This document shows positions 1 through 50,597 of a stretch of DNA of 64,000 nucleotides, in pieces. Source of the stretch: an uncultured Methanosarcinales archaeon (lineage in GTDB: Archaea; Nanobdellota; Nanobdellia; Woesearchaeales; GW2011-AR9); contig CAZEAB010000004.1 in assembly GCA_964510085.1 (NCBI GenBank), positions 9,284 through 73,283 on the forward strand, in the 5' to 3' direction. The first letter of the stretch is position 1. Every line of letters begins with the position of its first letter. The notes beneath the pieces were generated by a model that was given only the letters and a program-made list of their open reading frames with translations, was not told the DNA's origin and did not search any database. The translations under genes were made by a program, and so were the position numbers.

Positions 1-124
1 AAAGTAATTCAAACAACTCGAGTGGGGATAAAAGAAGACGTAGAATTACCTTGGCGGTTCTATCTAGCTGGCAATATGTATGTAAGTAGAAGGTAATGCC
101 CAGAATAGAATGATTTTGTGTAAT

Positions 125-181
125 GGGGGCCCTGACTTGTCGAGGTGGGTACTTCGTAGAAGTACGATACCACCGTGCCCC
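125..181 (-). ncRNA. Copy A of a recurrent structured motif (unclassified; RNA nature inferred)
   Basis: Minus strand reads GGGGCACG GUGG UAUC GUACUUC-UAC-GAAGUAC CCAC CUCGAC AA GUCAGGGCCCCC. It has the same invariant unpaired blocks and compensatory stems as the copies at 44913, 48423, 47079 and 33243. It is GC-rich in an AT-rich spacer. Transcription is not demonstrated. Confidence 0.5.
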
Positions 182-260
182 AATATACAAATTAATGTTT
201 ATTCTGGATGAAGATAAATGGAGATAATTATTTAAACTAGCTCTTCAAATTTTTAATTAT

Positions 261-395
261 GCGGGGGTGAGAGAGTGGTCAATTGTGAATCAGTGATGAA
301 CAATTTGTTCAGAAATCTCTGATTTCAGACAAAATCTGCCAGGTTGAGGGCCTGGTGCCTTAGTGGCTACGCGTGTTCGAACCACGTCCCTCGCA
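261..395 (+). tRNA. tRNA-Leu(GAG), class II, with an inferred ~51-nt intron in the D-loop/D-stem junction (about 283-333)
   Basis: Acceptor GCGGGGG (261-267) pairs with CCCTCGC (388-394, one G-U), and the discriminator is A395. D region is AGA-GAGUGGUCAA. Anticodon arm is CCAGG-UUGAGGG-CCUGG (339-355) with anticodon GAG at 346-348. There is a 15-nt variable arm (356-370) and a T arm GCGUG-UUCGAAC-CACGU (371-387). A T-run follows the 3' end. The D-stem 3' strand UCU-G (335-338) is separated from the D-loop by about 51 nt. Intron boundaries are approximate. Confidence 0.7.
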
Positions 396-9722: not shown

Positions 9723-10243
9723 AACAAGCAAGTGTAATGGTAAAATTAGTAGTATTCTTGATTGTTATAGTGGTAACAAGTTCAATTGTGTTGTTATTAG
9801 TTCGCACAGGAGTAGTAGATCCAACGGGAGAACAACAAGATGTATTAAATGTTGATTTTATTCCTATTGCAACTGGTTCGTTGAGTATTCGTAGCGTTTC
9901 ATTATGTGGTTCACTAATTGAGTTTGAATGTCTTGAAACAGAAGAGTTTTCAGTTGGACAAAAGGTTAATGTGTTGTTCTTAGTTGAGACAGATGTAGAT
10001 GCTGGCAGAGTGTTGTTAATTAGAAGTTATACGGTTAAAGATTCAGCTGGAAATGTTGTATTTGCATCTTCAGGAAATAATAATGTAGTCTTTGAAGAAA
10101 CAAGTGAAAAATCAGTAGAATTAATTGGCTTTTCAGATTCATTTACTCCAGGCGGAGTTGGTGAGTTTGTATTGGAAGCTATTGTTGAAAATCCAATCTT
10201 GGGAAAGAAAGTATCTGCAAGTAAGAGGTTTGTGATAGGATGA
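9707..10243 (+). CDS. single-pass membrane protein with beta-rich ectodomain
   Basis: N-terminal TM KLVVFLIVIVVTSSIVLLLV. The likely true start is ATG 9719, which forms an ATGA overlap with the upstream stop at 9720-9722. Its own stop overlaps the next start at 10240-10243. Confidence 0.5.
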   Translation: MLSNMKQASVMVKLVVFLIVIVVTSSIVLLLVRTGVVDPTGEQQDVLNVDFIPIATGSLSIRSVSLCGSLIEFECLETEEFSVGQKVNVLFLVETDVDAGRVLLIRSYTVKDSAGNVVFASSGNNNVVFEETSEKSVELIGFSDSFTPGGVGEFVLEAIVENPILGKKVSASKRFVIG

Positions 10244-13200
10244 AATGGGCTGTGTTAGTGGTGATGTTAGTTCTTGCTAGTTCTATGGTTCTTGCTGAAT
10301 CTTTTGGTGGTCCTGGTGGAACAGAGTTTGTATTGGATTGTGGTGAAGGTTACTTAATTAATGGAATTGGTGGAAAAGAAGGAGCGTTAATAGATCAGTT
10401 ATTTGTCAATTGTATTAATCCGTTTAAAGATGAAGGTCAACGGAGAAGTATAAAAGAAGCAGGAGGAAAAGGTGGAGAAGATTTTGCATTTTTTTGTCAT
10501 GAAAGGAAATATGTTTCAAAAATCAATATGCACAAAGCAGGAGATTTTATTTCAGGATTACAAGCAGTATGTACTGATGGAACAAAATCAAAAATATTTG
10601 GAACGGAACAAAAAGGATTTGATTCTTTATTTTGTGATGCAAAGAATCCAGCTTTATCAACAATAGCTGGGAAAGCAGGAAATTTTTTAGATTCAATTAG
10701 TTTTGATAGATCTGTATGCCATATAATCCCAACAGCAGAAGATATTCTCAATGCGAAAATACCTCAAGAAGTAAGAAATGCCGAAGCTCCAATTGGGTTA
10801 CCAGAAATTGGAACAGAAACTCCTACAGAAGAAAATGGTGTGTTTACATGGAATAAAGAAGGAGTAGAGATTGTATATGATGGAAATAATATTGTATGGA
10901 AGAATTCTCTTGGAGAATGGGTTCTTGACATTAATTCTAAATCTAAAAGCTTTCAATCGACAACTCAATCAGTTAACTATTGGTCATTAGACAAAGTAAT
11001 TAATAGTGTTAACGTACCTTCCGGATTTCCAACACCGGATAGGAATGCAGATTGGAATATAGAGAAAGAAAGAAAACATATAAAAATTAATGTTGATGAA
11101 TGGGAAGTAACGTATTTTGTAGATGGAAGCAAGCAATGGAGGCGTGCAGATATAGCATACTCTGTATGGGCCGAGAGTAGCATTGGAAAATTCTTCCTTG
11201 GAAAACGTGAAGATTGGGGAGCATTAAAAGATACAGAAACAGGACCACCATTAGGTGTGCCAGGTTATTCAGGAAATCCAGCAAGTTCTATCTCCATATT
11301 TGATGGAGTATATGATTATTGGGATGTAAATGAATGGAGAATCTTTAAGAAACAAAACGAGAATGAATTTATATGGCAACGTGGTGGAAGGTGGTATTAT
11401 TATGATAATGGAAAACAAGTAAGCCAACCATATGCATCAGAATGGCCTTCTCCACATAGTTTCTCTCCTACATTTGAAACAAGTGGAAGTTCTTGGGTAT
11501 TAAGTAATAATGCTGCTAAGAAAATACAAGACCCATCACTTCAATGTGTTGGTAAATCTATTGGAATAACTGGAGCGTCAAATACCGTTGGTTCTCAAAG
11601 TTGGGCAAATAAACATTTACAAAAATTATGCGGTTCGAAATCAAAAATAAAAGTAAAAGCTACAGGTGGTTGGGGTCCTACAAAACAAAAAGCATTCTTA
11701 ACAAAAGATTTTCTTACACATAATAACGCCCCTTTAGATATTTTGGTAATTAATCCTTCCGGAAATTCTATTACTGGAGGCTCATGTAAAGATATGTACA
11801 AAGATCTAGATACAATGATTAACACCGCATTTGAAAATAATGTGAAGAAAGTTGCTGTAATGACTATTAGCCCTCGTTCAAACTGGCAGAAGAATTGTGT
11901 TGTAAAATATAATAACGGTTTACAAAAATTTATCACAGAGAATATTCAATCTTCACGAGCAGCAAAAGTACAGGTAATACATATTGAAAATGCGCTTATA
12001 ACTCCAGATAAACCAACCCATTGTGCATATTGTAACAAAGGGAATCAACGACATTGGAATTCAGAAGGACATTCACGAGTTGCAGCAGCAGTATATCAAA
12101 ACTTATTTGCTGCGCCAGGAGATTATACCCCAGAACAGATTACCAATTTACGTCGACAATTCGGATTAACATACTCACAGAAGGATGGTGCTGCTGTTTC
12201 AACACCATCTCCACCTATTTTTGACCAGAATTGTTTAGATTTGAATACATGTAAAGAAATTGATGAAGCATGGGGAAAATTATCTAAAGGACTTGGTGTA
12301 GGTGGAAAACCAGCTGAAAATGTATGGGTGAGAGATGCTGGCTGGAAGAAGTTTGAGGATGTGTATAGAAAAGTAACTGTTGAGAGTAGTAAAGGTTCTC
12401 AAAAAAGTCCAGTACCTGTATCAAATGCAATTGATATTTCCCATCATCAGGGTAAGATTGATTGGAAGAAGGTTAAAGCAGCAGGAATAGATTATGCATT
12501 CATTAAAGCATCTGAACATACAACATTTGTTGATAAAAGATTTAAAGAAAATGTAAAGAACGCACAAGCTGCAGGTGTTGAAGTTCTCGGATTATATCAT
12601 TTTGCACAACCAATGAAAAATAGTGCAGTAGAAGGAGCACAACATTTTGTAGAAACAACGAAGGGATACCTTGGAAATGGTATTAGGCCAGTATTAGATG
12701 TGGAAGCAGGAAAAGAATTAGGGAAGAAAGGCGTTTCAGATTGGGTTCTTACGTGGTTACAACATGTTGAAAAGAAAACAGGTCAGAAACCAATAATATA
12801 TGGAGGCAATTACGCTCGTAATTATATGGATGAGAGAATCGTCGATAAATATGATTTGTGGTATGCAAGTTGGACACATAATCCTAACAAAAAGCCAAGA
12901 AGTCCGAGTCCATGGAGTGGATATAAATACTGGCAATATAGTGATAGGGGAAGTGTAGATGGTATTTCTGGAGATGTAGATTTAGATGTTGTAAAAGTAA
13001 CATCTGGTCTTATTGCAGGAATTACAGATGAACAGATAGAGGCACATCAACCTAAAGTTATAGAAGAGAAAGTTGTTAAATATGATACGTTTGAAGTAAA
13101 AACAACATTTAGAGGATTCTTAGATGGAAGTTCTGGAAATGATAGACAAGAATACAAATATTTTATCTTACATGATGGTTCTGCAAATAAAATCCCAGAA

Positions 13201-13707
13201 TGTAATCTTGCAGTTGCAAAAACCGTTGGGTTATGGAAAGCTCGTGCAGTACTTCAAAATTCAAAAGTATCTTCTCATTATTACATATGTCATGACGGAA
13301 CAATTCACCAAATATTAGCAGATCAACGTGTAGGATATCATGCTGGCTGTCCATATAAAGGAAGTCCAAAAGAGTTATGTCCAATCTCTAATGTTAATAG
13401 AAGGTCAATTGGAATAGATTTCCAGAACTATGGTGGAGCAGTGAACTCATATACTGGTTCTAAGTATACGCAAGCGCAATATGATGCAGCTAATAACTTA
13501 ATGGCCTTCCTTGGTAATCTTCACAATATCCCTGTAGATGATGAACATATTCTAGGACATTTTGAAGTTACCAAAACAGTAAAGACAGCAGCCCAATTAA
13601 ACAAAAATGACCCCTATCCTCCATTTGATTGGTCTAAGATCGCAGGATTGAAGTATGACCATCAGCAGAAGAATGGTCCTAAGATGGATCCATTAGTTAC
13701 AGGATAA
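10240..13707 (+). CDS. secreted multidomain peptidoglycan hydrolase (beta-prism lectin-like + SGNH esterase-like + GH25 muramidase + amidase_2)
   Basis: - Signal peptide MKWAVLVVMLVLASSMVLA.
- About 10297-10725: three GGxGGxxF...I.G..G..ID/IS repeats (jacalin-like beta-prism).
- About 11545-12100: SGNH-like blocks (GASNTVG, PSGNS, HWNSEGH).
- About 12424-12995: GH25 signature (DISHHQGKIDW...FIKASEH...AGVEVLGLYHF...DVE).
- About 13150-13635: amidase_2/AmpD-like (SSHYYICHDGTIHQ...GYHAG...SIGIDFQN...ILGHFEV...KNDPYPPFDW). Confidence 0.8.
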   Translation: MKWAVLVVMLVLASSMVLAESFGGPGGTEFVLDCGEGYLINGIGGKEGALIDQLFVNCINPFKDEGQRRSIKEAGGKGGEDFAFFCHERKYVSKINMHKAGDFISGLQAVCTDGTKSKIFGTEQKGFDSLFCDAKNPALSTIAGKAGNFLDSISFDRSVCHIIPTAEDILNAKIPQEVRNAEAPIGLPEIGTETPTEENGVFTWNKEGVEIVYDGNNIVWKNSLGEWVLDINSKSKSFQSTTQSVNYWSLDKVINSVNVPSGFPTPDRNADWNIEKERKHIKINVDEWEVTYFVDGSKQWRRADIAYSVWAESSIGKFFLGKREDWGALKDTETGPPLGVPGYSGNPASSISIFDGVYDYWDVNEWRIFKKQNENEFIWQRGGRWYYYDNGKQVSQPYASEWPSPHSFSPTFETSGSSWVLSNNAAKKIQDPSLQCVGKSIGITGASNTVGSQSWANKHLQKLCGSKSKIKVKATGGWGPTKQKAFLTKDFLTHNNAPLDILVINPSGNSITGGSCKDMYKDLDTMINTAFENNVKKVAVMTISPRSNWQKNCVVKYNNGLQKFITENIQSSRAAKVQVIHIENALITPDKPTHCAYCNKGNQRHWNSEGHSRVAAAVYQNLFAAPGDYTPEQITNLRRQFGLTYSQKDGAAVSTPSPPIFDQNCLDLNTCKEIDEAWGKLSKGLGVGGKPAENVWVRDAGWKKFEDVYRKVTVESSKGSQKSPVPVSNAIDISHHQGKIDWKKVKAAGIDYAFIKASEHTTFVDKRFKENVKNAQAAGVEVLGLYHFAQPMKNSAVEGAQHFVETTKGYLGNGIRPVLDVEAGKELGKKGVSDWVLTWLQHVEKKTGQKPIIYGGNYARNYMDERIVDKYDLWYASWTHNPNKKPRSPSPWSGYKYWQYSDRGSVDGISGDVDLDVVKVTSGLIAGITDEQIEAHQPKVIEEKVVKYDTFEVKTTFRGFLDGSSGNDRQEYKYFILHDGSANKIPECNLAVAKTVGLWKARAVLQNSKVSSHYYICHDGTIHQILADQRVGYHAGCPYKGSPKELCPISNVNRRSIGIDFQNYGGAVNSYTGSKYTQAQYDAANNLMAFLGNLHNIPVDDEHILGHFEVTKTVKTAAQLNKNDPYPPFDWSKIAGLKYDHQQKNGPKMDPLVTG

Positions 13708-24324: not shown

Positions 24325-24597
24325 ATGGAACTACGAGAAGAGAAGCTTTCTAGAGCAATTAGCGCATTTTCTAGACGACAGATTCTTAGGCTTCTCGCTG
24401 ACGGGGACATGACTGTAAAAGAAATCGCCACCTCCACAAAGATGAGCATGTCCCTTGCTTCTCGTCATCTTTCCATGCTTAGAGATTTAGGAATTTTAGA
24501 CGTAAAAAGAAAACATCCATTCAAATTCTATTCATTAAAAATCAAAGAAATTAAAGGATTATTAGACATCTATGATAAGGTGATACAGAAAATATGA
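24325..24597 (+). CDS. ArsR/SmtB-family winged-helix transcriptional regulator
   Basis: 90 aa. RRQILRLLADGDMTVKEIATSTKMSMSLASRHLSMLRDLGIL is a typical ArsR HTH. Its stop overlaps the next start (ATGA at 24594-24597). Confidence 0.65.
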   Translation: MELREEKLSRAISAFSRRQILRLLADGDMTVKEIATSTKMSMSLASRHLSMLRDLGILDVKRKHPFKFYSLKIKEIKGLLDIYDKVIQKI

Positions 24598-27500
24598 GAA
24601 AAGCCTGGAAACGAAAGAAGAAAGAGGACCATCATAAAGAAATTGTAGTTCTACTAATGATGATAGGACTCACAGGTTTATTCTTCCTTAGCGTTTCTGA
24701 TACATCAGTACAAACATTCTCATATGTTGGCGACTTCCTAGCAGGTGATTCTATAACCGGTGCTGCTATAGGATTATTTACAGATTCTAATGATGATGAC
24801 TTGGTTGATTTCTTTGAAGATTTTGGAGAAGGTTTAGATAACACCACAAGATGGTATAACTCATCAAGTCTCGCTTCCGTTCATTTTGTCACGAACGGAA
24901 TAATGATCAACACATCATTAACAAACGATGCTGGAGATGTTTCTGTAGTTACAGCACACAATGTTACTGTTCATTCATTTAACATGACTGCTAACATAAC
25001 TGTACAGAATCTTTCTTCAACATTTTCAGTGGATTCTAGTACTGCAGTTCATGTAGCTGCTTTTAATCAAAGTAATCTTCAACAAAAAACTAGTTGCTCA
25101 GTAAATCTTGAAGATCCAGATGAAACTGGTGGTTATTATGTTTTATATTTTTCAAACTCTACAACATCTGGCCCTCCACCAACTATCATCTCAACCTCTT
25201 TAGATGATTTAGGAGCGAACATCACGGGACTGCTTAAAATGAATTATGATAATGAGACAAAAGTGGTTAATTGTTCATTTTTTAGTGGAGGGGACATGTT
25301 ATCTGTTAAGGGCGTAAGTAATGACGTTGCACAAGACTTTGGTGTTGGTATTTTTGCAGAATTAGCATATGCAGGTGCAGGAGATCCAACAGGAGATTTG
25401 AATACTACAATTCATTCATTTAATTATTCATTGGCTCCAGTAGAGGAAGCCCCTCCTGCAAATAGTCTACCTTTACTCGGAAGTATTGATTTAAACACCA
25501 CAGATTTATCGAATGATACAAATCAAAACCTTACTGCTAATGCTGTTCATTTTGATGATGATAGTGACGGAGTAAAAATTATTTACAATTGGTTATTGAA
25601 CGGTTCTTCACAACTATTATTGAATACACCATTTGAAGGAGATAATGAGAATGAAGCAATCAATACTACTGATTATGCCTATTATAACAACGGTTCTGTT
25701 TATGGTGCTACATGGGATCCTTCAACTGGTTTTGATGGAAATGGAAGTTACGATTTTAATGGAAGCACAGACTGGATAAATTTTTCAGATAATACTCGTT
25801 ATGAACCTACAGAAAATTTCAGTATTGAAGTATGGGTAAACCCAAGTGGTAATGGGAGTAGTACTGGTAGTGGTGGGGAACCACGGTCAATAATAAGCAA
25901 AGGAGGGGGATTTTCAGCAGGATATAGTCTGGAACTAAATACAAATGAAATCTCTACAATTTCATTTTATACTGGATCAGGTGGTTCGAGCGATATAGAA
26001 GGAAGTTTGACTGCACCAGATAATGTTTGGACCCATGTTGTTGCTGTATATAACGGTACTAATGCTAGCTTATGGATAAATGGTGTATTAGATACAGCAA
26101 TACCAAGAACTGGAGCTTTCACATATGATACTAGTGCATTAGAAGTTGGTCGTGCTACTGGGACATCCGGACAAGAAGCATATTTTAACGGTTCCATTGA
26201 TGACTTACGAATATGGAATAGATCCTTAACTGGAGAACAGATTCTTGCATTATTCAACAACAAAACCAATCTAATTGTTGCAAAAGAAACCACTTCCGGC
26301 CAAAACTGGACTGTAGATTTAACACCACACGATGGTTCTGCAGCTGGTGGGACCAATAGAAGTAATCAAGTTATTACGGTTCCTGTTTCTGTCGCTGAAA
26401 ACAACCCTCCTCTTCTTGGGGATATTGACTTAAGTTCTACAGATTTGTCTAATGATACCAACCAAAATATATCTGTCTCCTCAGAACCAAGTGATGCAGA
26501 TGGTGACACAGTAAAAACAATTTACAACTGGTTATTAAACACCTCGTCACAGTTATTATTAAACGCACCATTTGAAGCAAATAATGAAAATGAAGCCATT
26601 AATGCAACAGACTATGCTTATTGGAGTAACGGTTCTGTATATGGTGCAACATGGAGTGGCACAAGTGGTTTTGATGGAAATGGGAGTTATGATTTCAATG
26701 GAAGTACTGACTGGATAAACTTTTCAGATAATACGAGATATGAACCAACAGAAAATTTTAGTATTGAAGTATGGGTGAAACCTGATGGAAATGGTAGTGA
26801 GTCTAGTGGTGGTGGAGTACCTCGTGGAATCTTAAATAAAGATGCAGGGTTTACTGCTGGGTATGGTCTTGAGATTTCTACTAATGACTTAAGTACTATT
26901 TTATTTTATACTGGTTCTTTAGGAGCAAATGATATTGAAAGTACTGGAACAGCTCCAGACAATGTTTGGACACACATCGTAGCAGTATATAACAGCACAA
27001 ATGCAAGTGTATGGATTAATGGAGTGTTGGACACTGCTATTGCCAGAACTGGTGCTTTTACATATGGTACTGGTTCATTAGAAGTTGGAAGATCTACTGG
27101 AACAACTAACCAAGAGAACTATTTCAACGGTTCTATGGATGAATTACGTATCTGGAATCGCTCATTATCTGGTGAACAAATTCTTGCATTATTTACAAAC
27201 AGAACAGATTTAATCGTCGCAAAAGAAACAACATCTGGTCAGAACTGGACTGTTGATGTAACACCAAATGATGGAACTCAAGATGGTGGGACTAATAGAT
27301 CAAACCAACTAATAACAGTTCCGGCAGCACCTCCAAATAATCCTCCAATATTGGGTGCTATTAATCTAAACACAACTAATATCACCTCAAATAGTACTAA
27401 TCAAAATCTAACAATATATGCAACGCCTTCTGATGCAGATAGTGATGGCGTAAAAATAATTTACAATTGGTTAGTAAATAGTTCTTCGCAAACAGTTCTG

Positions 27501-30500
27501 AATATTCCTTTTGAATCCAACGGTGGAAATGAGGGGATAAACACAACCGATTATTCAGGAAGAAGCATTAATGGAAGTGTTAACAGTTCCATCTGGAACT
27601 CTACTGGAGGTGTTGATAAAAATGGAAGTTATGTATTTAATGGAATTAATGCATCTATTAAATTTCCAGATAGAACAGAATTTGAATTAGTTGATAATAT
27701 AACTATTGAAGGGTGGGTGAAACATGAAGGAAATTCAACAGATGGCATTACACCAAGGGCAGGAGGTTTCATACAAAAAGATGATGGGATTGGTGCAGGA
27801 TGGTCAATTACAGTTGGAACTGATGACAATGCAACTATTGTATTTCAAATATCTGTTGATTCTTTACCTGTCACACATACTTCAACAGGAAATGTTTCTC
27901 CTAACGCATGGACACATATTGTAGCAAGGTATAACAGAACTAATGTAAGTATTTTTATTAATGGGGTAGAAGACACTATTTTTGCATTTAATGATACAAT
28001 GACGTATGATACAGGTCAACTACAAATAGGACAAGATGGTCCAGATGGCTTTGCGGCATTCTTTAACGGCTCTATGGATGAAATACGTATTTGGAATAGA
28101 TCTTTATCAAATGAACAAATCTCTGCAATTTTTAATAACAAGACAAATGTAATTGTTTCACAAGAAACAACTGGAAACCAGAACTGGACTGTTGATGTAA
28201 CACCAAATGATGGAACTCAAGATGGTGGGACTAATCGAAGTAATCAAGTAATAATAGTTCCTGCTGCTGCTACTGATACTGCTGCACCATTAGTCGAATT
28301 TATTGCTCCAACTAATGGAAGTAATTATAGTAATTTAGATACAAATGTTCTGTTTAATGTAAGTGTTTTAGAAGAAAATAATGATAGTGTTATCTTCATC
28401 TTCAATAATGCGACTGGTACAGCATTCAACAAAACAGGATATAATGCATCGGGTTATTGGAATACTACGCTAGATATGTCTTCTTTGGTAGAAGGAGCTC
28501 ATACAGTAGTTATTCATGCAAATGATACTTCGGGAAACGAAAACAATAGTGTGAATCTTTCATTTACAAAAGACTCTTCCGCACCAACTGTTACATGGAC
28601 TAACCCAACAAATGTTTCAAATTATACCGTTTCTACAGGCAATGTTTCATTTAATATTACTGTTAATGACTTAACTGCTCAAACAGTTTTATTTAGCTTT
28701 GACAATTCCACAGGAAACACTTTCAATGCTACTGCAATAAATGATAGCGGAACGTGGTACGCAAATGTAAACGTAAGTGGTTTAGTAGAGGGAACAACAA
28801 CCGTAACGATAATAGCAAATGATACTTTAGGTCAAATTAACAACACAGAACAGATAATAATTATTGTTGATAACACCGCACCAACAGTTACATGGTCAAC
28901 TCCAAATAACAATACCAACTACTCTTTATCGTATGGAAATGTGTCCTTTAACATCACAGTCAATGAAGCAAACTTTGTAAGAGAATTACTCTTCAGCTTT
29001 GACAATGCAACTGGAAATGCATTCAATGTAACTGGAACGAATGATAGTGGTACATGGTATGCTAACGTAAATGTATCTGGATTGACAGAAGGACTTAATA
29101 CAATTACAGTATTTGCAAACGATTCTTCTGGAAATGTAAATAATTCCATTCAAGTTTCTTTAACTGCAGACTTTACAGCACCAACAGTTACGTTAGTAAC
29201 ACCATCAAATTCATCAAACTTTTCCAAAACAAGCTACAACCAAACATTTAATGTAAGTGTAGGAGATTTAACTAGTAATTCAGTTATCTTCCGATTTGAT
29301 ACTGAGACTGAAACACTATTTGATGTAACAGCAGAAAATAAATCTGGATATTGGTCAGCTTCATACAATGTTTCTAGTCTTGCAAATGGAACTTATACTG
29401 TAACCATAATAGCAAACGATTCTGCAAGTAACCAGAACCAATCTCAAATTATAAAATTTTATGTTGATAAGGAAGCACCAATTGTAACAATTCATGAACC
29501 AGTAGCTCCAGCCAATACAAGTTTATTAGAAATAAACTTTACAACTCACGAATTTGCTGTCTGTTTATGGAAAAACAGTACTGGTTCCTACACTAACTTC
29601 AACAGAACTGAAACTTCCAGTCATTATCAAAATGTAACGGATTTATCTCCAACAAGCCAAATATATAGTTTCTCATGTAATGATACATTAAATAATAAGA
29701 TTAATTTCACATTTCCAATTTTAGTAACAACTCAAAATTACACAAACCTTTCAAGAAAAACGCTTAACTTTAGTGGGAATACAACAGATACAGTAACAAC
29801 ACTTCCTAATTTTAACATTACATTAAACTTATCTGGAACATATGTCTCAAATTTCTCACTTGCTGTAACAGAATATAATTTAACACCTGAAACAGTTAGC
29901 CTTACCATAAGTGGAGAAACAGTTACAGAATTTAGGTATTATGTAATTGAAGCGCCAGATATTACAGAACAAATTAACAAATTAACATTTAAAATAACAT
30001 ATAATGAAACACTCGTTACAAATGCAGGAATTGCTGAAGCAGATTTAGAAGTATTCTATTACAACCTCTCATCTGAAACATGGGTTCCAGAAACAGAGTA
30101 TGCAGTTGATACAGATAATAATTTTGTTGAAGTTAATGTAACTCATTTGAGTACATTTGTTCTTGGAAAATCTGCTGTAGTTGCAGGTGATAGTTCAAGT
30201 AGTAACACAGGAAGTCCAGGAGGTGGCGGTAGTAGTTCCGGTGCTGGAGCAGCATCACCATCAAGTACTCCAACACCATCCACACCATCCACACCAAGTG
30301 CACCAAGTGCTCCGTCTGCTCCATCAACACCACCTGCACCAAGTGCTCCTAGTACTCCAACCACTGCAGCAACAGCACCATCAAGAGGAAACATAGCAGG
30401 ATTTGCGTTCTTTAACAAAGCAGGAGAATTTACAAAAAATAATGCTGGATTAGTACTTGGATTTTTTACAATAATAGTAATATCATTAGGAGCTACAATC

Positions 30501-31262
30501 TCAATCCCAAGAATTAGACGGAGAAGAAAAATGAAACAAACACAACGGTATAGTATTGTATCAGATAAACCAATAGAACCAATTATGGAGATACAAGATC
30601 AATCCTCAAAAGATGATAGTAAATTAGACCAACAATTTAAACGAGTTGAAGAGCTCATTGACAAAATTGGTGAAACAGATGAACATGCACCAATAGCAGC
30701 ACGATATCACGCAGCTGCATCAAGATTTAGAAAAGAAGCTGCTATTGAAAGTCGTCAAAGATCACCAACAACAACTATATTGGCAGAACCAAAGCGACAT
30801 GAAACATTACGAACAGAATTGGATGATATTCATAATGAATTAGCTACATTACGAGAACCAGTAAAAAAATCAAGAATCATTACATCCTCTCCTGTAATGG
30901 GTCATGTTGATGTTAAAAACAGAGATAAAGAATTAAGAGAAGTACAAAGAAAATTGGCTGAAAAGAAAGCTGAAATGAAAGAAATGCCAAAACCTACAAT
31001 TGACCCTGCTAGAGATATTGATATTCAATCAAAATTACAAGAACTTGGTCATCGAAACAAACCACGAATTATTAACTCAGTAAGACCAACAACAGGCCAT
31101 ACAAAATTTGAAGATACAACATTAATGAATAAAAAAATAAACCAATTACAATCAACTGAAACCAACACACCCCCAAAAGCGGAGCAACGGGTTGCTAAAC
31201 CAGGAAAAGAATTACAAGAACTTGAAGAAGAAATTAGAAAATTAAGTGAAAAACTACGCTAA
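24594..31262 (+). CDS. giant surface glycoprotein-like protein (2222 aa; 3 LamG/ConA-like modules, about 5 Ig-like repeats, PT-rich stalk, TM, charged cytoplasmic tail)
   Basis: - N-terminal signal-anchor.
- Three ~310-aa modules, each ending in the Laminin_G_3 signature YFNGS(I/M)D(D/E)LRIWNRSL(S/T)GEQILALF.
- About five ~99-aa repeats beginning AP(T/L/I)V(T/E).
- A PGF-pre-PGF-like segment (THLSTFVLG) and a PS/PT-rich stretch.
- TM helix GLVLGFFTIIVISLGATISI followed by RIRRRRK and a ~250-aa Lys/Glu-rich tail.
- Very many N-x-S/T sequons. Confidence 0.75.
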   Translation: MRKAWKRKKKEDHHKEIVVLLMMIGLTGLFFLSVSDTSVQTFSYVGDFLAGDSITGAAIGLFTDSNDDDLVDFFEDFGEGLDNTTRWYNSSSLASVHFVTNGIMINTSLTNDAGDVSVVTAHNVTVHSFNMTANITVQNLSSTFSVDSSTAVHVAAFNQSNLQQKTSCSVNLEDPDETGGYYVLYFSNSTTSGPPPTIISTSLDDLGANITGLLKMNYDNETKVVNCSFFSGGDMLSVKGVSNDVAQDFGVGIFAELAYAGAGDPTGDLNTTIHSFNYSLAPVEEAPPANSLPLLGSIDLNTTDLSNDTNQNLTANAVHFDDDSDGVKIIYNWLLNGSSQLLLNTPFEGDNENEAINTTDYAYYNNGSVYGATWDPSTGFDGNGSYDFNGSTDWINFSDNTRYEPTENFSIEVWVNPSGNGSSTGSGGEPRSIISKGGGFSAGYSLELNTNEISTISFYTGSGGSSDIEGSLTAPDNVWTHVVAVYNGTNASLWINGVLDTAIPRTGAFTYDTSALEVGRATGTSGQEAYFNGSIDDLRIWNRSLTGEQILALFNNKTNLIVAKETTSGQNWTVDLTPHDGSAAGGTNRSNQVITVPVSVAENNPPLLGDIDLSSTDLSNDTNQNISVSSEPSDADGDTVKTIYNWLLNTSSQLLLNAPFEANNENEAINATDYAYWSNGSVYGATWSGTSGFDGNGSYDFNGSTDWINFSDNTRYEPTENFSIEVWVKPDGNGSESSGGGVPRGILNKDAGFTAGYGLEISTNDLSTILFYTGSLGANDIESTGTAPDNVWTHIVAVYNSTNASVWINGVLDTAIARTGAFTYGTGSLEVGRSTGTTNQENYFNGSMDELRIWNRSLSGEQILALFTNRTDLIVAKETTSGQNWTVDVTPNDGTQDGGTNRSNQLITVPAAPPNNPPILGAINLNTTNITSNSTNQNLTIYATPSDADSDGVKIIYNWLVNSSSQTVLNIPFESNGGNEGINTTDYSGRSINGSVNSSIWNSTGGVDKNGSYVFNGINASIKFPDRTEFELVDNITIEGWVKHEGNSTDGITPRAGGFIQKDDGIGAGWSITVGTDDNATIVFQISVDSLPVTHTSTGNVSPNAWTHIVARYNRTNVSIFINGVEDTIFAFNDTMTYDTGQLQIGQDGPDGFAAFFNGSMDEIRIWNRSLSNEQISAIFNNKTNVIVSQETTGNQNWTVDVTPNDGTQDGGTNRSNQVIIVPAAATDTAAPLVEFIAPTNGSNYSNLDTNVLFNVSVLEENNDSVIFIFNNATGTAFNKTGYNASGYWNTTLDMSSLVEGAHTVVIHANDTSGNENNSVNLSFTKDSSAPTVTWTNPTNVSNYTVSTGNVSFNITVNDLTAQTVLFSFDNSTGNTFNATAINDSGTWYANVNVSGLVEGTTTVTIIANDTLGQINNTEQIIIIVDNTAPTVTWSTPNNNTNYSLSYGNVSFNITVNEANFVRELLFSFDNATGNAFNVTGTNDSGTWYANVNVSGLTEGLNTITVFANDSSGNVNNSIQVSLTADFTAPTVTLVTPSNSSNFSKTSYNQTFNVSVGDLTSNSVIFRFDTETETLFDVTAENKSGYWSASYNVSSLANGTYTVTIIANDSASNQNQSQIIKFYVDKEAPIVTIHEPVAPANTSLLEINFTTHEFAVCLWKNSTGSYTNFNRTETSSHYQNVTDLSPTSQIYSFSCNDTLNNKINFTFPILVTTQNYTNLSRKTLNFSGNTTDTVTTLPNFNITLNLSGTYVSNFSLAVTEYNLTPETVSLTISGETVTEFRYYVIEAPDITEQINKLTFKITYNETLVTNAGIAEADLEVFYYNLSSETWVPETEYAVDTDNNFVEVNVTHLSTFVLGKSAVVAGDSSSSNTGSPGGGGSSSGAGAASPSSTPTPSTPSTPSAPSAPSAPSTPPAPSAPSTPTTAATAPSRGNIAGFAFFNKAGEFTKNNAGLVLGFFTIIVISLGATISIPRIRRRRKMKQTQRYSIVSDKPIEPIMEIQDQSSKDDSKLDQQFKRVEELIDKIGETDEHAPIAARYHAAASRFRKEAAIESRQRSPTTTILAEPKRHETLRTELDDIHNELATLREPVKKSRIITSSPVMGHVDVKNRDKELREVQRKLAEKKAEMKEMPKPTIDPARDIDIQSKLQELGHRNKPRIINSVRPTTGHTKFEDTTLMNKKINQLQSTETNTPPKAEQRVAKPGKELQELEEEIRKLSEKLR
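25456..28270 (+). repeat. three tandem ~0.93-kb coding repeats (LamG modules)
   Basis: Units start near 25456, 26401 and 27334. Units 1 and 2 are near-identical at protein level with mostly synonymous nucleotide differences; unit 3 is more divergent. Confidence 0.8.
28285..29730 (+). repeat. about five tandem ~0.3-kb coding repeats (Ig-like modules)
   Basis: The GCACCA(A/T)... (AP.V) unit starts recur at 28285, 28581, 28879, 29179 and 29476. Confidence 0.7.
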
Positions 31263-33120: not shown

Positions 33121-33242
33121 CGCGATTTTATACGCTCTACCACCATTATGGATATCATATTTAATTTCTATTCACCTAACGTATAGGAATATGTAAATCA
33201 GTTAAAAGGTTTATTGTTCTTCGTAAGTAATATGTGATCTCA

Positions 33243-33318
33243 TGTGAGCTAGGCACGGCGTTTATCATGAGCTCACTTTGTTTACTCATCGCCTCAGCTG
33301 GCTAGGCCCCTGCTCACA
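33243..33318 (+). ncRNA. Copy E (divergent) of the recurrent structured motif
   Basis: Outer stem UGUGAGC, then UAGGCACG GCG UUUAUC AUGAG-loop-CUCAU CGC CUCAGC UG GCUAGGCCCC, closed by outer stem GCUCACA. It ends 55 nt upstream of the radical SAM ATG at 33373. Confidence 0.4.
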
Positions 33319-33372
33319 AGATATTACTTCCTCTTAAATAGATTTATAAAAGAAAACAGCCAAATACATACT

Positions 33373-44831: not shown

Positions 44832-44912
44832 CTATCTTCTTCTAAGAAGAAGAATATGTTTAAAAAAGTTCTCCTAAAAAACTTTATCTAAAATTAAACA
44901 CATTTGTATATC

Positions 44913-44967
44913 GGGGCACGCCCGAATCGTACCTTTTAGGTACCGGGCTCGACAAGTCAGGGCCCCC
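44913..44967 (+). ncRNA. Copy B of the recurrent structured motif
   Basis: GGGGCACG CCCG AAUC GUACCU-UUU-AGGUAC CGGG CUCGAC AA GUCAGGGCCCCC. Flanked by complementary UUUGUAUAU / AAAUACAAA. It ends 87 nt upstream of the GH15 start. Confidence 0.55.
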
Positions 44968-45053
44968 AAATACAAAATGATGTTATTACATATAATCTTC
45001 TCTTTGAAGAAACTATTATAAACAATGAATTATTACTATAAAACTAAAAAAAG

Positions 45054-47048
45054 ATGGTACGACACTTTGTTCTTGGAAACGGGAACATTTTAGTAGGTTT
45101 AGATAGTTTAGGTAGAATTAGAGACTTCTATTTCCCTTATGTTGGGCAAGAGAATCACGTAAACGGAAAAATACACAAAATAGGAATATGGGTAAACGGA
45201 ATGTTTACTTGGTTTGAATCTGATGAATGGAAAAAAACAATATCATACAAAAAAGAAACACTTATTACAAATATTGTTGCAATTAATGAACGACTTGGAA
45301 TACAAATCACATTTAATGATGGAGTATCTCATGATAAAAACATATTAATACGAAAAATCAAAGTAAAAAATGTACATGATGACACGAAAGAAGTACGTTT
45401 ATTCTTCCACCAACAATTTGACATTTCAGAAGGAAACATAGGAGACACAGTATATTATCACCCATTACTAAAATCTCTTATACACTATAAAGGAAAACGA
45501 TACTTCTTAATGAACGGTTGCGTTGGAAAACAAGGGATTTCTGAATATGCAACAGGTCTCGTAGGAGAATATGGAAAAGAAGGAACGTATAAAGATGCAG
45601 AAGATGGAGTATTAAGTAATAACCCAGTAGAACATGGCTCTGTCGATTCTACATTAGCACTACATCTTCAATTACCTCCTCAAAAATCAAAAGATTGTTA
45701 TTACTGGATTTGTGTTGGAGATTGTTTCCATGATGTTGAAACATTGAATGCAACCATTTTAAATCCAGGTCCACAGAATCTTTTACAAGAAACAGAACAA
45801 CATTGGAAAAAATGGGTTAACAGGACAGATTTCAAATTTATGGATTTGTCAAAGAATGTAATAGATTTATTCAAACGCTCTCTTTTGATAATAAACACAC
45901 AAATGGATAATGGTGGATCAATAATTGCATCATCGGATTCAGAGATGCTTCATTTACGAAGAGATACATATGCGTATATGTGGCCAAGGGACGGAGCTTT
46001 AATTTCTCGTTCTTTAGATAGAGCAGGATATTCTAATTTAACAAGCAAATTTTTTGAATTCTGTACTACTGCTATCTCAAGAGAGGGATATCTTCTTCAT
46101 AAATATAGGCCAGACGGTTCTCTAGGAAGTTCATGGCATTCCTGGTTATATCATGGACATATACAACTTCCAATCCAAGAAGATGAAACAGCTCTCGTAC
46201 TAGATGCATTATGGAAACATTTTCAACAACATGGAAATAAAAAAATAATGAAAAGTTATTTAGACACCTTTGTAAGACCAGCAGCAGAATTTATGCTTTC
46301 ATATATTGATGAAAAAACAGGATTACCAAAAGAAAGTTATGATCTCTGGGAAGAAAAACTAGGAATCCATACATTTACCTCTGCAACAGTCTATGCAGGA
46401 TTTAAAGCAGCAGCTAATTTTGAAAGAGTATTTGGTAAAAAAGAAAAGGGTAAAAAGTATCTAGTTGCTGCTGAACGAGTTAAAGAAGCAATATTAAAAC
46501 ATCTTTATGATCCAGAATTAGGATATTTTGTAAAAATGGCGTACTATGATGGTAATGAACTCAAAAAAGATACAACTCTAGATATGAGTAGCGCGTATGG
46601 AGTATTCCAATTTGGTGTCCTTGACAGCGATGATGAAAGAATAGAATCTTCTATGAATGCTTGTTTGGAAAGGCTTTCTCTTAATACAAACTCAGGAGGA
46701 CATGCTAGATATGTAAATGATTATTATTACCGTGTTGATAAAGAAGGCACACCAGGAAATCCTTGGTTCATAACCTCATTATGGGTAGCAGAATATTATA
46801 TACATAAAGCGTATAATAAAAAAATGTTACAACCGGCAATAGATATCTTTAACTGGGTAGCATCACATACATTAGAAACAGGAGTTCTTTCAGAACAACT
46901 TAACCCCCACACTTCGGAACCAGTATCAGTAGCACCATTAACCTGGAGTCATGCAGGCTTCGTCATCGCAATTAATAAATACTTAGAGAAACTAGATAAT
47001 TTAGGGATATGCACGATGTGTAATCCACCAAAATATAAAGAAAAATGA
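45054..47048 (+). CDS. GH15-family glucoamylase/glucodextranase-like glycoside hydrolase
   Basis: The N-terminal LGNGNILVGLDSLGRIRDFYFPYVG beta-sandwich and the (alpha/alpha)6 motifs YMWPRDGA, DLWEE and LTWSHA are typical of archaeal GH15. Confidence 0.8.
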   Translation: MVRHFVLGNGNILVGLDSLGRIRDFYFPYVGQENHVNGKIHKIGIWVNGMFTWFESDEWKKTISYKKETLITNIVAINERLGIQITFNDGVSHDKNILIRKIKVKNVHDDTKEVRLFFHQQFDISEGNIGDTVYYHPLLKSLIHYKGKRYFLMNGCVGKQGISEYATGLVGEYGKEGTYKDAEDGVLSNNPVEHGSVDSTLALHLQLPPQKSKDCYYWICVGDCFHDVETLNATILNPGPQNLLQETEQHWKKWVNRTDFKFMDLSKNVIDLFKRSLLIINTQMDNGGSIIASSDSEMLHLRRDTYAYMWPRDGALISRSLDRAGYSNLTSKFFEFCTTAISREGYLLHKYRPDGSLGSSWHSWLYHGHIQLPIQEDETALVLDALWKHFQQHGNKKIMKSYLDTFVRPAAEFMLSYIDEKTGLPKESYDLWEEKLGIHTFTSATVYAGFKAAANFERVFGKKEKGKKYLVAAERVKEAILKHLYDPELGYFVKMAYYDGNELKKDTTLDMSSAYGVFQFGVLDSDDERIESSMNACLERLSLNTNSGGHARYVNDYYYRVDKEGTPGNPWFITSLWVAEYYIHKAYNKKMLQPAIDIFNWVASHTLETGVLSEQLNPHTSEPVSVAPLTWSHAGFVIAINKYLEKLDNLGICTMCNPPKYKEK

Positions 47049-47078
47049 ATAAGGAGAAGATTTTGAAATAATTATTGT

Positions 47079-47111
47079 GGGGCACGCCCGAATCGTACAG
47101 GCCACCCACAA
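47079..47111 (+). ncRNA. Copy D (5' half only) of the recurrent structured motif
   Basis: GGGGCACGCCCGAAUCGUAC is identical to the first 20 nt of copy B, then diverges (AGGCCACCCACAA). An alternative outer stem is UUGUGGG/CCCACAA. It ends 83 nt upstream of the glycogen synthase start. Confidence 0.35.
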
Positions 47112-47193
47112 AGAATATTCCAAAAATAATGTAAATGACAAAAGTACAAAAAATGTATACATTTTTGAACATCCAAAGTGAGGTGCCTTCACT

Positions 47194-48396
47194 TTGAAAG
47201 TATTAATGTTTGGATGGGAATTCCCTCCCTTTCACAGTGGAGGACTAGGAACAGCATGTTACGGTCTCACAAAAGGACTTTATAACCACGGAGTTGATGT
47301 AACATTTGTCGTACCAAGATTACCAGAAGTAGCAGACTCAGAATTCGTAAAACTTGTAGCAGCAAACGAAACAGCAACAGTAATCCCCATAAATTCTCCA
47401 TTACAAGCATATATGACAGAAGAAGAATACACAATCATGATGAACGAAGAATACTCTCCAACAAAAACAAAATCAATGTATGGTGGGAATTTATTTTCTG
47501 AAGTAAAAAGATATGCACAGAAAGCACAACAAATTGCAGAAGAACAGGAACATGACATAATACATGCACACGATTGGATGACATACCAAGCAGGTTATGC
47601 AGCAAAAAAAATATCTGGAAAACCTCTTGTGCTACATATACATGCAACAGAATTTGATAGAACTGGAGGAAATGGATTACATCCATTCGTACATCAGATA
47701 GAAAGAGAAGGTTTCGAAAACGCAGATAAAATAATTGCAGTAAGTAGGTTTACAAAACGGAAATTAGTTGAAAAGTATAATGTAAATCCAGATAAAATAG
47801 AAGTAGTACATAACGCAGTTGAATTAACCCCACAACCCGTTCGTAAAGAACGAACAAAAAACGTATTGTTTTTAGGAAGAGTTACGTTACAAAAAGGTCC
47901 AGATTACTTCATCTCAGCTGCGAAAAGAGTTTTAGAATTACGAAAAGATGTTACATTCATTATGGCGGGATCTGGTGACATGCAACGGTCTCAAATAGAA
48001 AAAGCAGCAGAACTTGGAATAGGCGATAAAATTCTTTTCACGGGATTTTTACGAGGAAAAGACGTAGACAAAGCATATCAAATGGCGGATCTTTACGTAA
48101 TGCCATCTGTCTCAGAACCATTTGGCATCACGCCATTAGAATCACTTAACAACAACGTACCTGTCCTAATATCAAAACAATCAGGCGTATCTGAAGTACT
48201 ACATCATTGCTTGAAAGTCGATTTCTGGGATATAGATGAAATGGCAAGTAAGATTATTTCAGTATTAGATAATGATATTTTGTGGAAAAGTTTACGAAAG
48301 AATGGTGCTAAAGAAGTTTCAAAGTTTAGTTGGAATGAACCTGCTTCTAAATGTGTTAACGTATATGATAATTTGATGGTTAAAGTTGAAGGGTAG
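47194..48396 (+). CDS. glgA: glycogen synthase-like glycosyltransferase (GT-B, GT4/GT5)
   Basis: MKVLMFGWEFPPFHSGGLGTACYGL N-terminus and a C-terminal E..G...LE motif (SEPFGITPLESL). TTG start is preceded by the SD-like GAGGTG. An alternative ATG lies at 47206. Confidence 0.7.
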   Translation: MKVLMFGWEFPPFHSGGLGTACYGLTKGLYNHGVDVTFVVPRLPEVADSEFVKLVAANETATVIPINSPLQAYMTEEEYTIMMNEEYSPTKTKSMYGGNLFSEVKRYAQKAQQIAEEQEHDIIHAHDWMTYQAGYAAKKISGKPLVLHIHATEFDRTGGNGLHPFVHQIEREGFENADKIIAVSRFTKRKLVEKYNVNPDKIEVVHNAVELTPQPVRKERTKNVLFLGRVTLQKGPDYFISAAKRVLELRKDVTFIMAGSGDMQRSQIEKAAELGIGDKILFTGFLRGKDVDKAYQMADLYVMPSVSEPFGITPLESLNNNVPVLISKQSGVSEVLHHCLKVDFWDIDEMASKIISVLDNDILWKSLRKNGAKEVSKFSWNEPASKCVNVYDNLMVKVEG

Positions 48397-48422
48397 GAAG
48401 TCTATCCAGAATGAAATAAAAA

Positions 48423-48559
48423 TGTATACTGGGGCACGGCAGATTCGTTTAGTTTATAACTAAACCTGCCTCGACTCATGAAAATCAAAACATATTGATT
48501 TTCAGAGCTTAAATGAAATCCTTGTTTCATTTAATGCTACGTCAGGGCGCCAGTATACA
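48423..48559 (+). ncRNA. Copy C (expanded) of the recurrent structured motif
   Basis: UGUAUACUGGGGCACG GCAG AUUC GUUUAGUU-UAU-AACUAAAC CUGC CUCGAC [two extra perfect hairpins, 48475-48540] GUCAGGGCGCCAGUAUACA. It ends 81 nt upstream of ATG 48640. Confidence 0.55.
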
Positions 48560-48639
48560 AATTACATTCATTCTGAACAGACTAATGTAGGAATACCTTT
48601 TTATACTATAACTCATTACTTTACACCTAAGAGGGTAGA

Positions 48640-49368
48640 ATGAGCAAGCAAATTTTAAACGAAGTACATCCAGATAGTCAGTTCTGGCTAGCTGATGGAA
48701 AGACTCTTAAGAATCTACATGAATTACGAAATGCCCTCCAACAAATGGATGATACAGTCTTCGGCCATCATGTTAATGAAGAAAGACATGACTTTCATAA
48801 CTGGGTAAAAGATGTTCATCAAGATGAAAAACTAGCAGAAGCAATGTTGCAACAAAAACATAGGAAAGGTGTTCTTTATGAAGTTGCTCGTAGAATTAAG
48901 GAAGTAGAAGGTTATATTGGAAATTCAAAGATAGAGTATGCAAAAAAGAAATCATTGAAAAAAGAATCTAAAAACAAAAATCTCAAAAAAGCAACCGTTA
49001 CAAAAGTAAAAAAAGCAACTTCAACTAAAAAATCAATAAAAAGAAAGAAAAAAAGTTCTGTAAAAAAACTAAGTAAGGAAGACAAGGAGATTAAAGAAAT
49101 TAATAAAGCACTACAAGAACCAGATAGATTATTTACATTCGATTTTCTCACAAAATTTACAATCAACAATAAAATTGAAACTATTGCAATAACTACTGCA
49201 ATTGCATTCTCATTGATAATACTTGCAAGTAACTCAACCGGACCAAATATAACTGGAGCAGTAATTGGTTCGGCAGGAGCGTTTTCAATCTCTGGAATAA
49301 TCGCTGCAACAGGAGTAATTACACTTCTCTTCATGACATTATACTTCATGCAGCAAGAAAAATGGTAA
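48640..49368 (+). CDS. hypothetical protein: conserved N-terminal domain + Lys-rich linker + C-terminal TM
   Basis: The N-terminal ~75 aa (FWLADGKTLKNLHELRNALQQMDDTVFGHHVNEERHDFHNWVKDVHQDEKLA) is paralogous to ORF 50549-50857. The C-terminus has one or two TM helices. Confidence 0.5.
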   Translation: MSKQILNEVHPDSQFWLADGKTLKNLHELRNALQQMDDTVFGHHVNEERHDFHNWVKDVHQDEKLAEAMLQQKHRKGVLYEVARRIKEVEGYIGNSKIEYAKKKSLKKESKNKNLKKATVTKVKKATSTKKSIKRKKKSSVKKLSKEDKEIKEINKALQEPDRLFTFDFLTKFTINNKIETIAITTAIAFSLIILASNSTGPNITGAVIGSAGAFSISGIIAATGVITLLFMTLYFMQQEKW

Positions 49369-50597
49369 GTATCTGCTTTTACTTCCAAGTACATCAACCT
49401 TTTCGACTAAGTAGATATAAAGTATTTGATATTGGTTCAACAAGAGATTATTTTGACGAAGAAAAAAATTCTGCAGTACTCCAGAAAGTTGCAAAAAAAT
49501 GTTACTTACCAACAAATAAACTTTTACTAGCACTAATTCGATTACATCCAGAATTTAAAATAAGTTTCAGTTTTTCTGGCGTATTCTTAGAACAATGCGA
49601 AAAATATATGCCAGAAGTTCTAGAAAGTTTTAAGGAATTGGTAAAAACAGGAAACGTAGAAATCCTTGCAGAAACATATTATCATTCCCTTGCATTTCTC
49701 TACTCAGAAACAGAATTTGAAGAACAAGTTAACATGCATATGGCAACAATTAAACGACTTTTTAACGTTACTCCCACCGTATTTAGAAATACTGAATTAA
49801 TTTATCAAAATGCTCTTGCAAGAAAAGTAGAAGATATGGGATTCAAAGCAATTCTCTTAGAAGGATGGGATAACATCCTTGAATGGAGATCGCCTAACTT
49901 TGTGTATAAATCTTTACTTGGAAATCTTCCTTTATTATGTAAAAATTATCGTCTCTCAGATGATGTCGCATTCAGATTTTCAAACAAAGAATGGAAAGAA
50001 CATCCACTAAGCGTAGAAAAATATGCCTCCTGGATTAACGAAGTAAATGGAACTGGAGATACAGTTAACTTATTTATGGATTACGAAACATTTGGAGAAC
50101 ATCAATGGGAGTCAACAGGAATCTTTGAATTCCTACGGCATCTTCCTGGAGCTTTATTACAACATCCAGATAATAACTTCAAATTTCCAAGTGAAATAGC
50201 AGAATACCCTGCACGAGATGTTTTAGATATTCACGAACCTTTATCCTGGGCGGATATGGAAAGAGATGTAAGTGCGTGGCTTGGAAATGACATGCAGAGA
50301 TCTGCAATACAAAAATTATATGCACTCGAAACATATATTAAGGAGAAAAATAATCCAGAACTATTGCACTTATGGAGAAAGATGCAAACATCTGACCATT
50401 TTTACTACATGTGTACGAAATGGTTTAATGATGGTGATGTTCATAAGTACTTTAATCCGTATGACAGCCCTTATGATGCGTTCATATATTACATGAATGT
50501 TTTTAAGGACTTACAAGATAAATTAGAAGAAAAAGGAGTGGTAGAAACATGGCAGCAAAAAGAAAAAAATCAGAAACAGCTAAGGGAGTACGCGTAG
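49362..50597 (+). CDS. GH57-family glycoside hydrolase (alpha-amylase / branching-enzyme-like)
   Basis: ICFYFQVHQPFRL N-terminus, and later FMDYETFGEHQW containing the GH57 E/D region. Confidence 0.7.
   Translation: MVSICFYFQVHQPFRLSRYKVFDIGSTRDYFDEEKNSAVLQKVAKKCYLPTNKLLLALIRLHPEFKISFSFSGVFLEQCEKYMPEVLESFKELVKTGNVEILAETYYHSLAFLYSETEFEEQVNMHMATIKRLFNVTPTVFRNTELIYQNALARKVEDMGFKAILLEGWDNILEWRSPNFVYKSLLGNLPLLCKNYRLSDDVAFRFSNKEWKEHPLSVEKYASWINEVNGTGDTVNLFMDYETFGEHQWESTGIFEFLRHLPGALLQHPDNNFKFPSEIAEYPARDVLDIHEPLSWADMERDVSAWLGNDMQRSAIQKLYALETYIKEKNNPELLHLWRKMQTSDHFYYMCTKWFNDGDVHKYFNPYDSPYDAFIYYMNVFKDLQDKLEEKGVVETWQQKEKNQKQLREYA

Follow-up and report, generated by a model that had tools for sequence, protein, structure and literature searches.

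A structured motif beside archaeal glycogen genes as the probable core of a MITE-like foldback element family

Three genes in the glycogen-metabolism cluster of an uncultured archaeon are preceded at nearly the same distance by copies of one structured motif, which raises the question of whether this motif regulates the genes or reached them by another route. The motif was described in an earlier note on a 64,000-nucleotide stretch of DNA (GenBank assembly GCA_964510085.1, contig CAZEAB010000004.1, positions 9,284 to 73,283; 34% GC), which we refer to as the window. That note listed five copies (A to E), three of them ending 87, 83, and 81 nt before the starts of a glycoside hydrolase family 15 (GH15) gene, the glycogen synthase gene, and a domain-of-unknown-function (DUF)/GH57 gene pair, and it suggested a cis-regulatory leader or a small protein-binding RNA. 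We reach a different interpretation, to which we assign a probability of about 0.65: the motif is the conserved core shared by a small, nonautonomous foldback family resembling MITEs (miniature inverted-repeat transposable elements), which underwent a lineage-specific burst in this DPANN archaeon. Close homologs of proteins encoded in the window carry the labels Woesearchaeota, Nanoarchaeota, or Nanoarchaeia, which places the organism among DPANN archaea.

All five copies exist at the positions claimed for them, and the core had been recognized correctly; the actual unit is larger, with inverted-repeat arms of 17 to 35 nt around the core. Copy A (97 to 209, minus strand) is a 113-bp foldback with its core at 126 to 181 and arms at 182 to 209 and 97 to 125. 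The other four are on the plus strand. Copy B (44874 to 44997) has its core at 44913 to 44966 and its arms at 44882 to 44912 and 44967 to 44997, and copy C (48400 to 48582; 183 bp) has 31-nt arms and a core at 48431 to 48551. Copy D (47061 to 47125) is an internally deleted relic (motif at 47079 to 47107) that retains its arms and the 5' 20 nt of the core, which are the same as in B. Copy E (33225 to 33329; core 33250 to 33310) is diverged and represents a subfamily of the GAGC-UAGGCACG type.

A three-copy covariance model (R1) detected C and the truncated D independently, and a broader model built from five sequences (R2) recovered copy E too, with an E value of 2.6e-4; R2 was the sole model to pick up this diverged copy. 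The complete motif reaches significance, with E values from the covariance models of 1e-33 to 1e-5. The short word GGGGCACG, with at most one mismatch, gave 6 matches compared to 6.3 expected, and short words by themselves are not significant. The same contig holds three further copies (F, G, and H) just past the end of the window, where we read the flanking DNA (here L144) on the 80-kb metagenomic scaffold from which the window comes (ENA ERZ23498963, scaffold_476). In total, we found eight copies in ~81 kb of one contig (~99 per Mb), all of them intergenic and 87 to 183 bp in size.

Copy A has the 3' end of a DNA-glycosylase gene on one side and a tRNA-Leu gene on the other and is antisense to both. 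Copy E occupies the spacer that separates divergent AAA_28 and radical S-adenosylmethionine (radical-SAM) genes, and copies E, F, G, and H adjoin radical-SAM, SepF, and small hypothetical genes. Four copies (C, D, G, and H) have the sense orientation and lie between co-directional genes, directly after stop codons, and three copies sit in divergent promoter regions. Divergent spacers carry no orientation information; in tandem-gene contexts, the split of four sense copies to one antisense copy is not significant.

Each core is the tip of a longer AT-rich inverted-repeat hairpin and folds into a three-way junction formed by P1, P2-P3, and P4. P1, which is GGGGC/GCCCC or a variant, continues the arms and is followed by an invariant AC. 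P2 consists of one G-C pair and four variable pairs, followed by a 4-nt bulge, usually WWUC, and then the P3 hairpin. The fourth helix, P4, lies inside the CUCGAC..GUCAGG segment, which the earlier note had taken to be unpaired. P4 occurs as GAC/GUC, GGC/GCC, AGC/GCU (copy E), and GUC/GAC (a copy from a related genome, L147), and it is either a stub of 5 bp or an expanded domain with two hairpins. The ~65-nt insert noted earlier in copy C, with its two hairpins, is such an expansion at the P4 apex (48476 to 48540), and copy G carries an unrelated expansion of ~50 nt at the same apex, again with two hairpins. Covariation in P2 and P3 is as had been claimed; in copy E, P2 is GCG/CGC.

MAFFT misaligned the copies with P4 expansions; hence, we registered the sequences by hand with N padding and cross-checked the outcome with a model-derived alignment. 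Both alignments were fitted to the structure, and the following counts should be read accordingly. In the hand-registered alignment of eight sequences, 96.4% of cells were paired and 14 of 22 pairs had changed on both sides; in the model-derived alignment of nine sequences, 94.8% of cells were paired and 12 of 18 pairs had changed on both sides. None of 500 shuffles reached these values in either alignment, and sliding the pairing partner left 31 to 52% of cells paired in the first and 31 to 46% in the second. Hairpin z-scores were as low as -9. The structural signal, with compensatory changes in a folded single strand, is genuine, which bears out the view that the motif is a structured nucleic acid and not an ordinary double-stranded operator.

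The arms are complementary at 207 of 245 aligned positions (84%). Those of A, B, and C are mutually homologous (..ATCCAGAAT..TTTGTATAT on one side of the core and ATACAAA..ATTCTG.. on the other), and those of E, F, G, H, and the L147 copy differ from them. Arm mismatches include 4 G-U and 8 A-C oppositions, showing no strand bias, and most are not wobble-compatible; the arms appear to be inverted repeats undergoing decay. Folding is about equally good for either strand. Given this equality and the absence of mismatch bias, the relevant single strand may be either DNA or RNA.

What decides between a regulator and a mobile repeat is the state of the same loci in related genomes. The closest relative is represented by L135/L149 DNA and by a 106-kb JGI contig, the latter as a gene map alone; protein identity to the window is 86% for GH15, 89% for radical-SAM, and at least 90% for the type II secretion system (T2SS) ATPase, which falls in the same 90%-identity cluster. 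Copy B is absent from L135 as a precise 129-nt indel, and the direct repeat TTCTC, found at 44869 to 44873 and 44998 to 45002 on either side of copy B, occurs a single time at the L135 empty site. Copy C is likewise absent from L135 as an indel of ~190 nt (the spacer is 48 nt in L135 and 49 nt in the more distant relative L136) and is bounded in the window by GTAGGAA at 48393 to 48399 and 48587 to 48593. For both copies, the filled site has two instances of the direct repeat and the empty site has one. The L135 flanks align right up to the B and C junctions, and the TATA-like boxes downstream are conserved.

L135 carries one copy of its own, at the D position (5803 to 5859). It is full length and intact, with P2 GCGG/CCGC and a UA linker, and copy D of the window is therefore its decayed ortholog; the D site is empty in L136. 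For the remaining copies, gene coordinates suggest absence from the close relative, where the spacers at the E, F, and H sites measure 98, 148, and 91 nt compared to 252, 225, and 173 nt in the window organism, and where the genes at the G site overlap by 4 nt compared to a 163-nt spacer in the window organism. In more distant relatives, the sites of C, D, E, and H are empty, which identifies the copies as gains and not as losses elsewhere. At least six copies were gained after the split from a relative with ~86 to 90% protein identity, a recent expansion specific to this lineage. Occurrence among relatives is patchy: no copy was found in the relatives L138, L152, and L155. In the metagenome-assembled genome GCA_964552945.1 (L136, L147, and L154; 65 kb), we found one copy, in L147; it occupies the same divergent spacer as copy F, belongs to a different subfamily, and is flanked by the perfect 10-bp repeat CTAAGAATCC.

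Insertion with duplication of the target is also evident at other copies. Copy G (L144, 4913 to 5075) is inserted exactly where the stop and start codons of two small co-directional genes overlap as ATGA. Its left flank ends ..TGAAGAAATGA and its right flank reads TGAAAGAAAATGA.., an 11-bp duplication that includes the ATGA overlap, so that the stop codon and the start codon are both preserved. The insertion kept both reading frames and removed the translational coupling of the gene pair. Copy A is abutted exactly by an 8-bp direct repeat, GAAGGTAA (89 to 96) and GAAGATAA (210 to 217). Considering nine copies together, the flanking direct repeats are longer than those of randomly paired sequence segments (P~0.008 for exact repeats and ~0.02 with one mismatch allowed), and their lengths range from 5 to 11 bp. 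The earlier note had itself named dispersed copies with target-site duplications as the sign of a MITE, and this is the pattern that we observed.

We compared the family with a working definition of MITEs that includes a size range of 50 to 800 bp (PMC11602168). The eight copies fall within this range, and the arms present in every full copy exceed terminal inverted repeats of 10 to 15 bp. Target-site duplications accompany B, C, G, A, and the L147 copy (set-wide P~0.01), their variable length being atypical, and insertions are polymorphic between related genomes, as seen in L135 DNA for B and C and from the gene map for E to H. Termini are homologous within A, B, and C only, and neither the window nor the flanks read contain a transposase. 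The density of ~99 per Mb matches the 105 MITEs per Mb reported for a Woesearchaea genome (PMC11602168).

On the MITE-like interpretation, the elements would be mobilized in trans by an enzyme encoded elsewhere, and this enzyme or a transposition intermediate would need the folded core. Such a need would keep the junction nucleotides invariant and let the stems covary between subfamilies, while the arm sequences drift. Several diverged subfamilies have inserted recently, so the compensatory differences would have built up in active source lineages under structural constraint. Copies would be present in the glycogen cluster because the cluster offers intergenic spacers. Those within transcripts (C, D, G, and H) would form a stable branched hairpin in the mRNA, and this hairpin may incidentally affect 3'-end stability or read-through.

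Several observations weigh against this interpretation. The arm termini are not conserved between subfamilies and the center is, the reverse of a classical MITE; the duplications vary in length, and some of the repeats stand 4 to 8 nt off the arm ends. Compensatory changes in three helices, together with invariant junction nucleotides, show selection on a folded single strand, which is more than a purely double-stranded cut-and-paste element would need. The ~81 kb of genome read yielded neither a transposase nor an autonomous partner, the related sequence surveyed amounts to only ~300 kb, and the absence of E, F, G, and H from the relative is based on gene coordinates, not DNA. A tentative further proposal, to which we give low odds, is that the three-way-junction core is a functional RNA or single-stranded DNA (ssDNA) module, read by the mobilizing enzyme or active in the reaction, or else a dispersed small-RNA family domesticated by the host.

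Searches of databases and the literature did not match the motif to a described family. Rfam gave no match in the whole window at gathering thresholds, and permissive local searches gave chance-level matches only (E>0.3). A scan of genome contigs with the pattern GGGGCACG..CTCGAC..GTCAGGG returned, among the matches listed, just chance ones in high-GC bacteria; a scan of metagenome contigs with CTCGACAAGTCAGGGCSCC returned eight chance matches at 56 to 69% GC, and a scan of viral contigs one chance match at 68% GC, the patterns being too GC-rich to be selective in all three cases. A blastn search of the element against phages and plasmids gave no match, and literature searches did not find a description of the motif. 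By inspection only, we also rejected several known RNA classes: an H/ACA guide (a symmetric pocket is lacking, as are a K-turn or K-loop and an ACA immediately following the stem), a K-turn (no tandem G.A pairs beside the bulge), a bulge-helix-bulge (bulges 4 bp apart on the two opposite strands are lacking), and hammerhead and hepatitis delta virus (HDV)-like topologies (core sequences and strand order do not fit).

The proposal that glycogen-metabolism genes are controlled by the motif, acting as a cis-regulatory leader or as an RNA that binds a ligand or protein, draws on the clustering of three copies upstream of the genes for GH15 and glycogen synthase and of the DUF/GH57 pair, on the conserved and covarying structure, and on a TrmB-family gene in the window. 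The genes themselves are as described: Pfam supports GH15 (45054 to 47048), a GT4/GT5 glycogen synthase (47194 to 48396), an unassigned 242-aa protein followed by GH57 (48640 to 50597), a glucokinase, and TrmB at 57726. The element shares with riboswitches and cis-regulatory leaders a compact multihelix junction, invariant junction nucleotides, covarying stems, and an optional peripheral domain. Unlike them, it is mobile, belongs to no single pathway, and shows no conservation beside orthologous genes: the 86%-identical relative lacks B and C, the L136 cluster has no copy, and across the glycogen clusters of three relatives (L135, L136, and L138) the motif is present solely as the L135 D copy. 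The copies do lie upstream of TATA-like boxes, as had been observed, and these boxes are conserved in relatives without the element, which places the copies past the upstream stop codon and ahead of the downstream promoter, thus outside 5' untranslated regions. In addition, copy D is truncated in this genome, the five other copies flank unrelated genes (A being antisense to both neighbors), and target duplications flank the copies. The distances of 87, 83, and 81 nt were computed correctly; the near-constant spacing is coincidental. At GH15, the B insertion point is ~110 nt from the start in L135 compared to 52 nt in the window. We regard a regulatory role in glycogen metabolism as very improbable. 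Equally little credence can be given to a target of site-specific recombination folding as ssDNA in the manner of integron attC sites, even with a fold conserved beyond the sequence of its stems, an apical domain of variable size reminiscent of the attC variable terminal structure, and copies lying between genes. The arm ends lack RYYYAAC/GTTRRRY core sites (the R'/R'' sites of attC), no integrase is encoded in the window or the flanks read, the neighbors are syntenic housekeeping genes and not a cassette array, both orientations occur, and target duplications are not a product of attC recombination.

Two other explanations concern how the fold would be used. The elements could have spread through a single-stranded intermediate that needs the folded core, either as RNA copied back to DNA in the manner of short interspersed nuclear elements (SINEs) or as ssDNA handled by a structure-specific enzyme, or they could be dispersed structured RNA genes used by the host. 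Strong covariation in P2, P3, and P4, junction nucleotides that are invariant across subfamilies, two unrelated two-hairpin expansions at exactly the same P4 apex, variable duplication lengths with nonconserved arm ends, and the sense orientation of four of five copies in tandem-gene contexts would all suit such a route. We nevertheless consider it doubtful: every copy has long inverted-repeat arms, which a retroposed RNA would not need, and there is no A-rich tail, no promoter at a fixed distance, and no strand bias between G-U and A-C mismatches. Copy A runs antisense to the genes beside it, the 4:1 orientation split is not significant, and neither a reverse transcriptase nor an HUH/Y1 enzyme is encoded in the window or the flanks read. 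It is unlikely, more so than the single-stranded route, that the copies are palindromes like enterobacterial repetitive intergenic consensus (ERIC) sequences, also called intergenic repeat units (IRUs), and repetitive extragenic palindromic (REP) sequences and their bacterial interspersed mosaic elements (BIMEs), kept by the host between genes as 3'-end stabilizers, terminators, or insulators. ERIC/IRU and REP/BIME sequences are imperfect palindromes in transcribed intergenic regions of enterobacteria, with the hairpin maintained, and the position of C, D, G, and H right after stop codons of co-directional genes, along with the great stability of the hairpins, would fit such a role. ERIC variants also carry extra sequence at fixed internal sites, resembling the P4 expansions of C and G; ERIC is a simple hairpin, however, not a three-way junction. 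REPs are shorter, lack target duplications, and depend on RAYT (Y1) transposases, none of which is encoded within the window; compared with the 20- to 40-nt REP/RAYT palindromes, which have a conserved 5' GTAG, our element is longer, branched, without a GTAG head, and flanked by duplications. We saw no similarity in sequence to ERIC/IRU or REP/BIME repeats. A host role of this kind also has to contend with the empty state of the same sites in close relatives, the decay of copy D, the three copies in divergent promoter regions, which are not expected to contain transcript 3' ends, and the interruption of a translationally coupled gene pair by copy G.

Among known systems, the element can be compared with prokaryotic MITEs that fold into long hairpins, such as Correia/NEMIS of Neisseria, Nezha of cyanobacteria, and the MITEs of Sulfolobus. 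Like them, the element is small, noncoding, multicopy, and intergenic, with terminal inverted repeats, target duplications, presence/absence polymorphism, and lineage-specific bursts. Unlike them, it has arm termini that differ between subfamilies, a center that is its most conserved part, and a duplication length of 5 to 11 bp. We know of no parent insertion sequence (IS) element for it.

We made several additional observations near the copies and elsewhere in the window. In the spacer between GH15 and glycogen synthase, the hairpin AAGTGAGGTGCCTTCACTT (47176 to 47194, plus strand) encloses a Shine-Dalgarno-like GAGGTG, which directly precedes the TTG start codon of the glycogen synthase gene. 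The hairpin has the same sequence in three species (L135 at ~5928 to 5946 and L136 at ~12072 to 12090) and could control translation initiation. The equivalent spacer of a 70%-identical relative (L138, 11985 to 12160) contains a different, GC-richer sequence of ~165 nt that is bounded by the inverted repeat ATGTTAACAG/CTGTTAACAT, has no Rfam match, and folds with z=-2.5; this is probably another foldback element family. The tRNA-Leu(GAG) gene beside copy A (261 to 395, plus strand) has a ~50-nt insertion in the D-arm region with motifs like a C box (GTGATGA) and a D box (CTGA), for which Rfam gave only sub-threshold C/D snoRNA matches (E 0.4 to 8). ARAGORN missed this interrupted gene and called the uninterrupted allele of a co-occurring strain (L140, 1641 to 1725). 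Farther away, a gene for a 2,222-aa Laminin_G_3/Ig-like surface protein (24594 to 31262) contains three tandem repeats with a period of 939 nt and 72 to 87% identity (25553 to 28276). A 1,155-aa protein (10240 to 13707) combines GH25 muramidase and N-acetylmuramoyl-L-alanine amidase domains, which are peptidoglycan-degrading and here occur in an archaeon; judging from these domains, the protein may bear on a life as an episymbiont of bacteria.

These results remove an apparent riboswitch-like regulator of archaeal glycogen metabolism. They also illustrate that covariation alone cannot separate a cis-regulator from a structured mobile repeat; here, the comparison of orthologous loci was decisive. 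A recent burst of foldback elements is documented in a reduced DPANN genome, including one insertion that split a coupled gene pair and damaged neither gene. If the fold is the target of the mobilizing machinery, the transposition mechanism would be an unusual one, and if the core is indeed read by an enzyme, the family would represent a structure-dependent class of mobile elements in DPANN archaea that is recognized by its fold and not by its terminal sequence.

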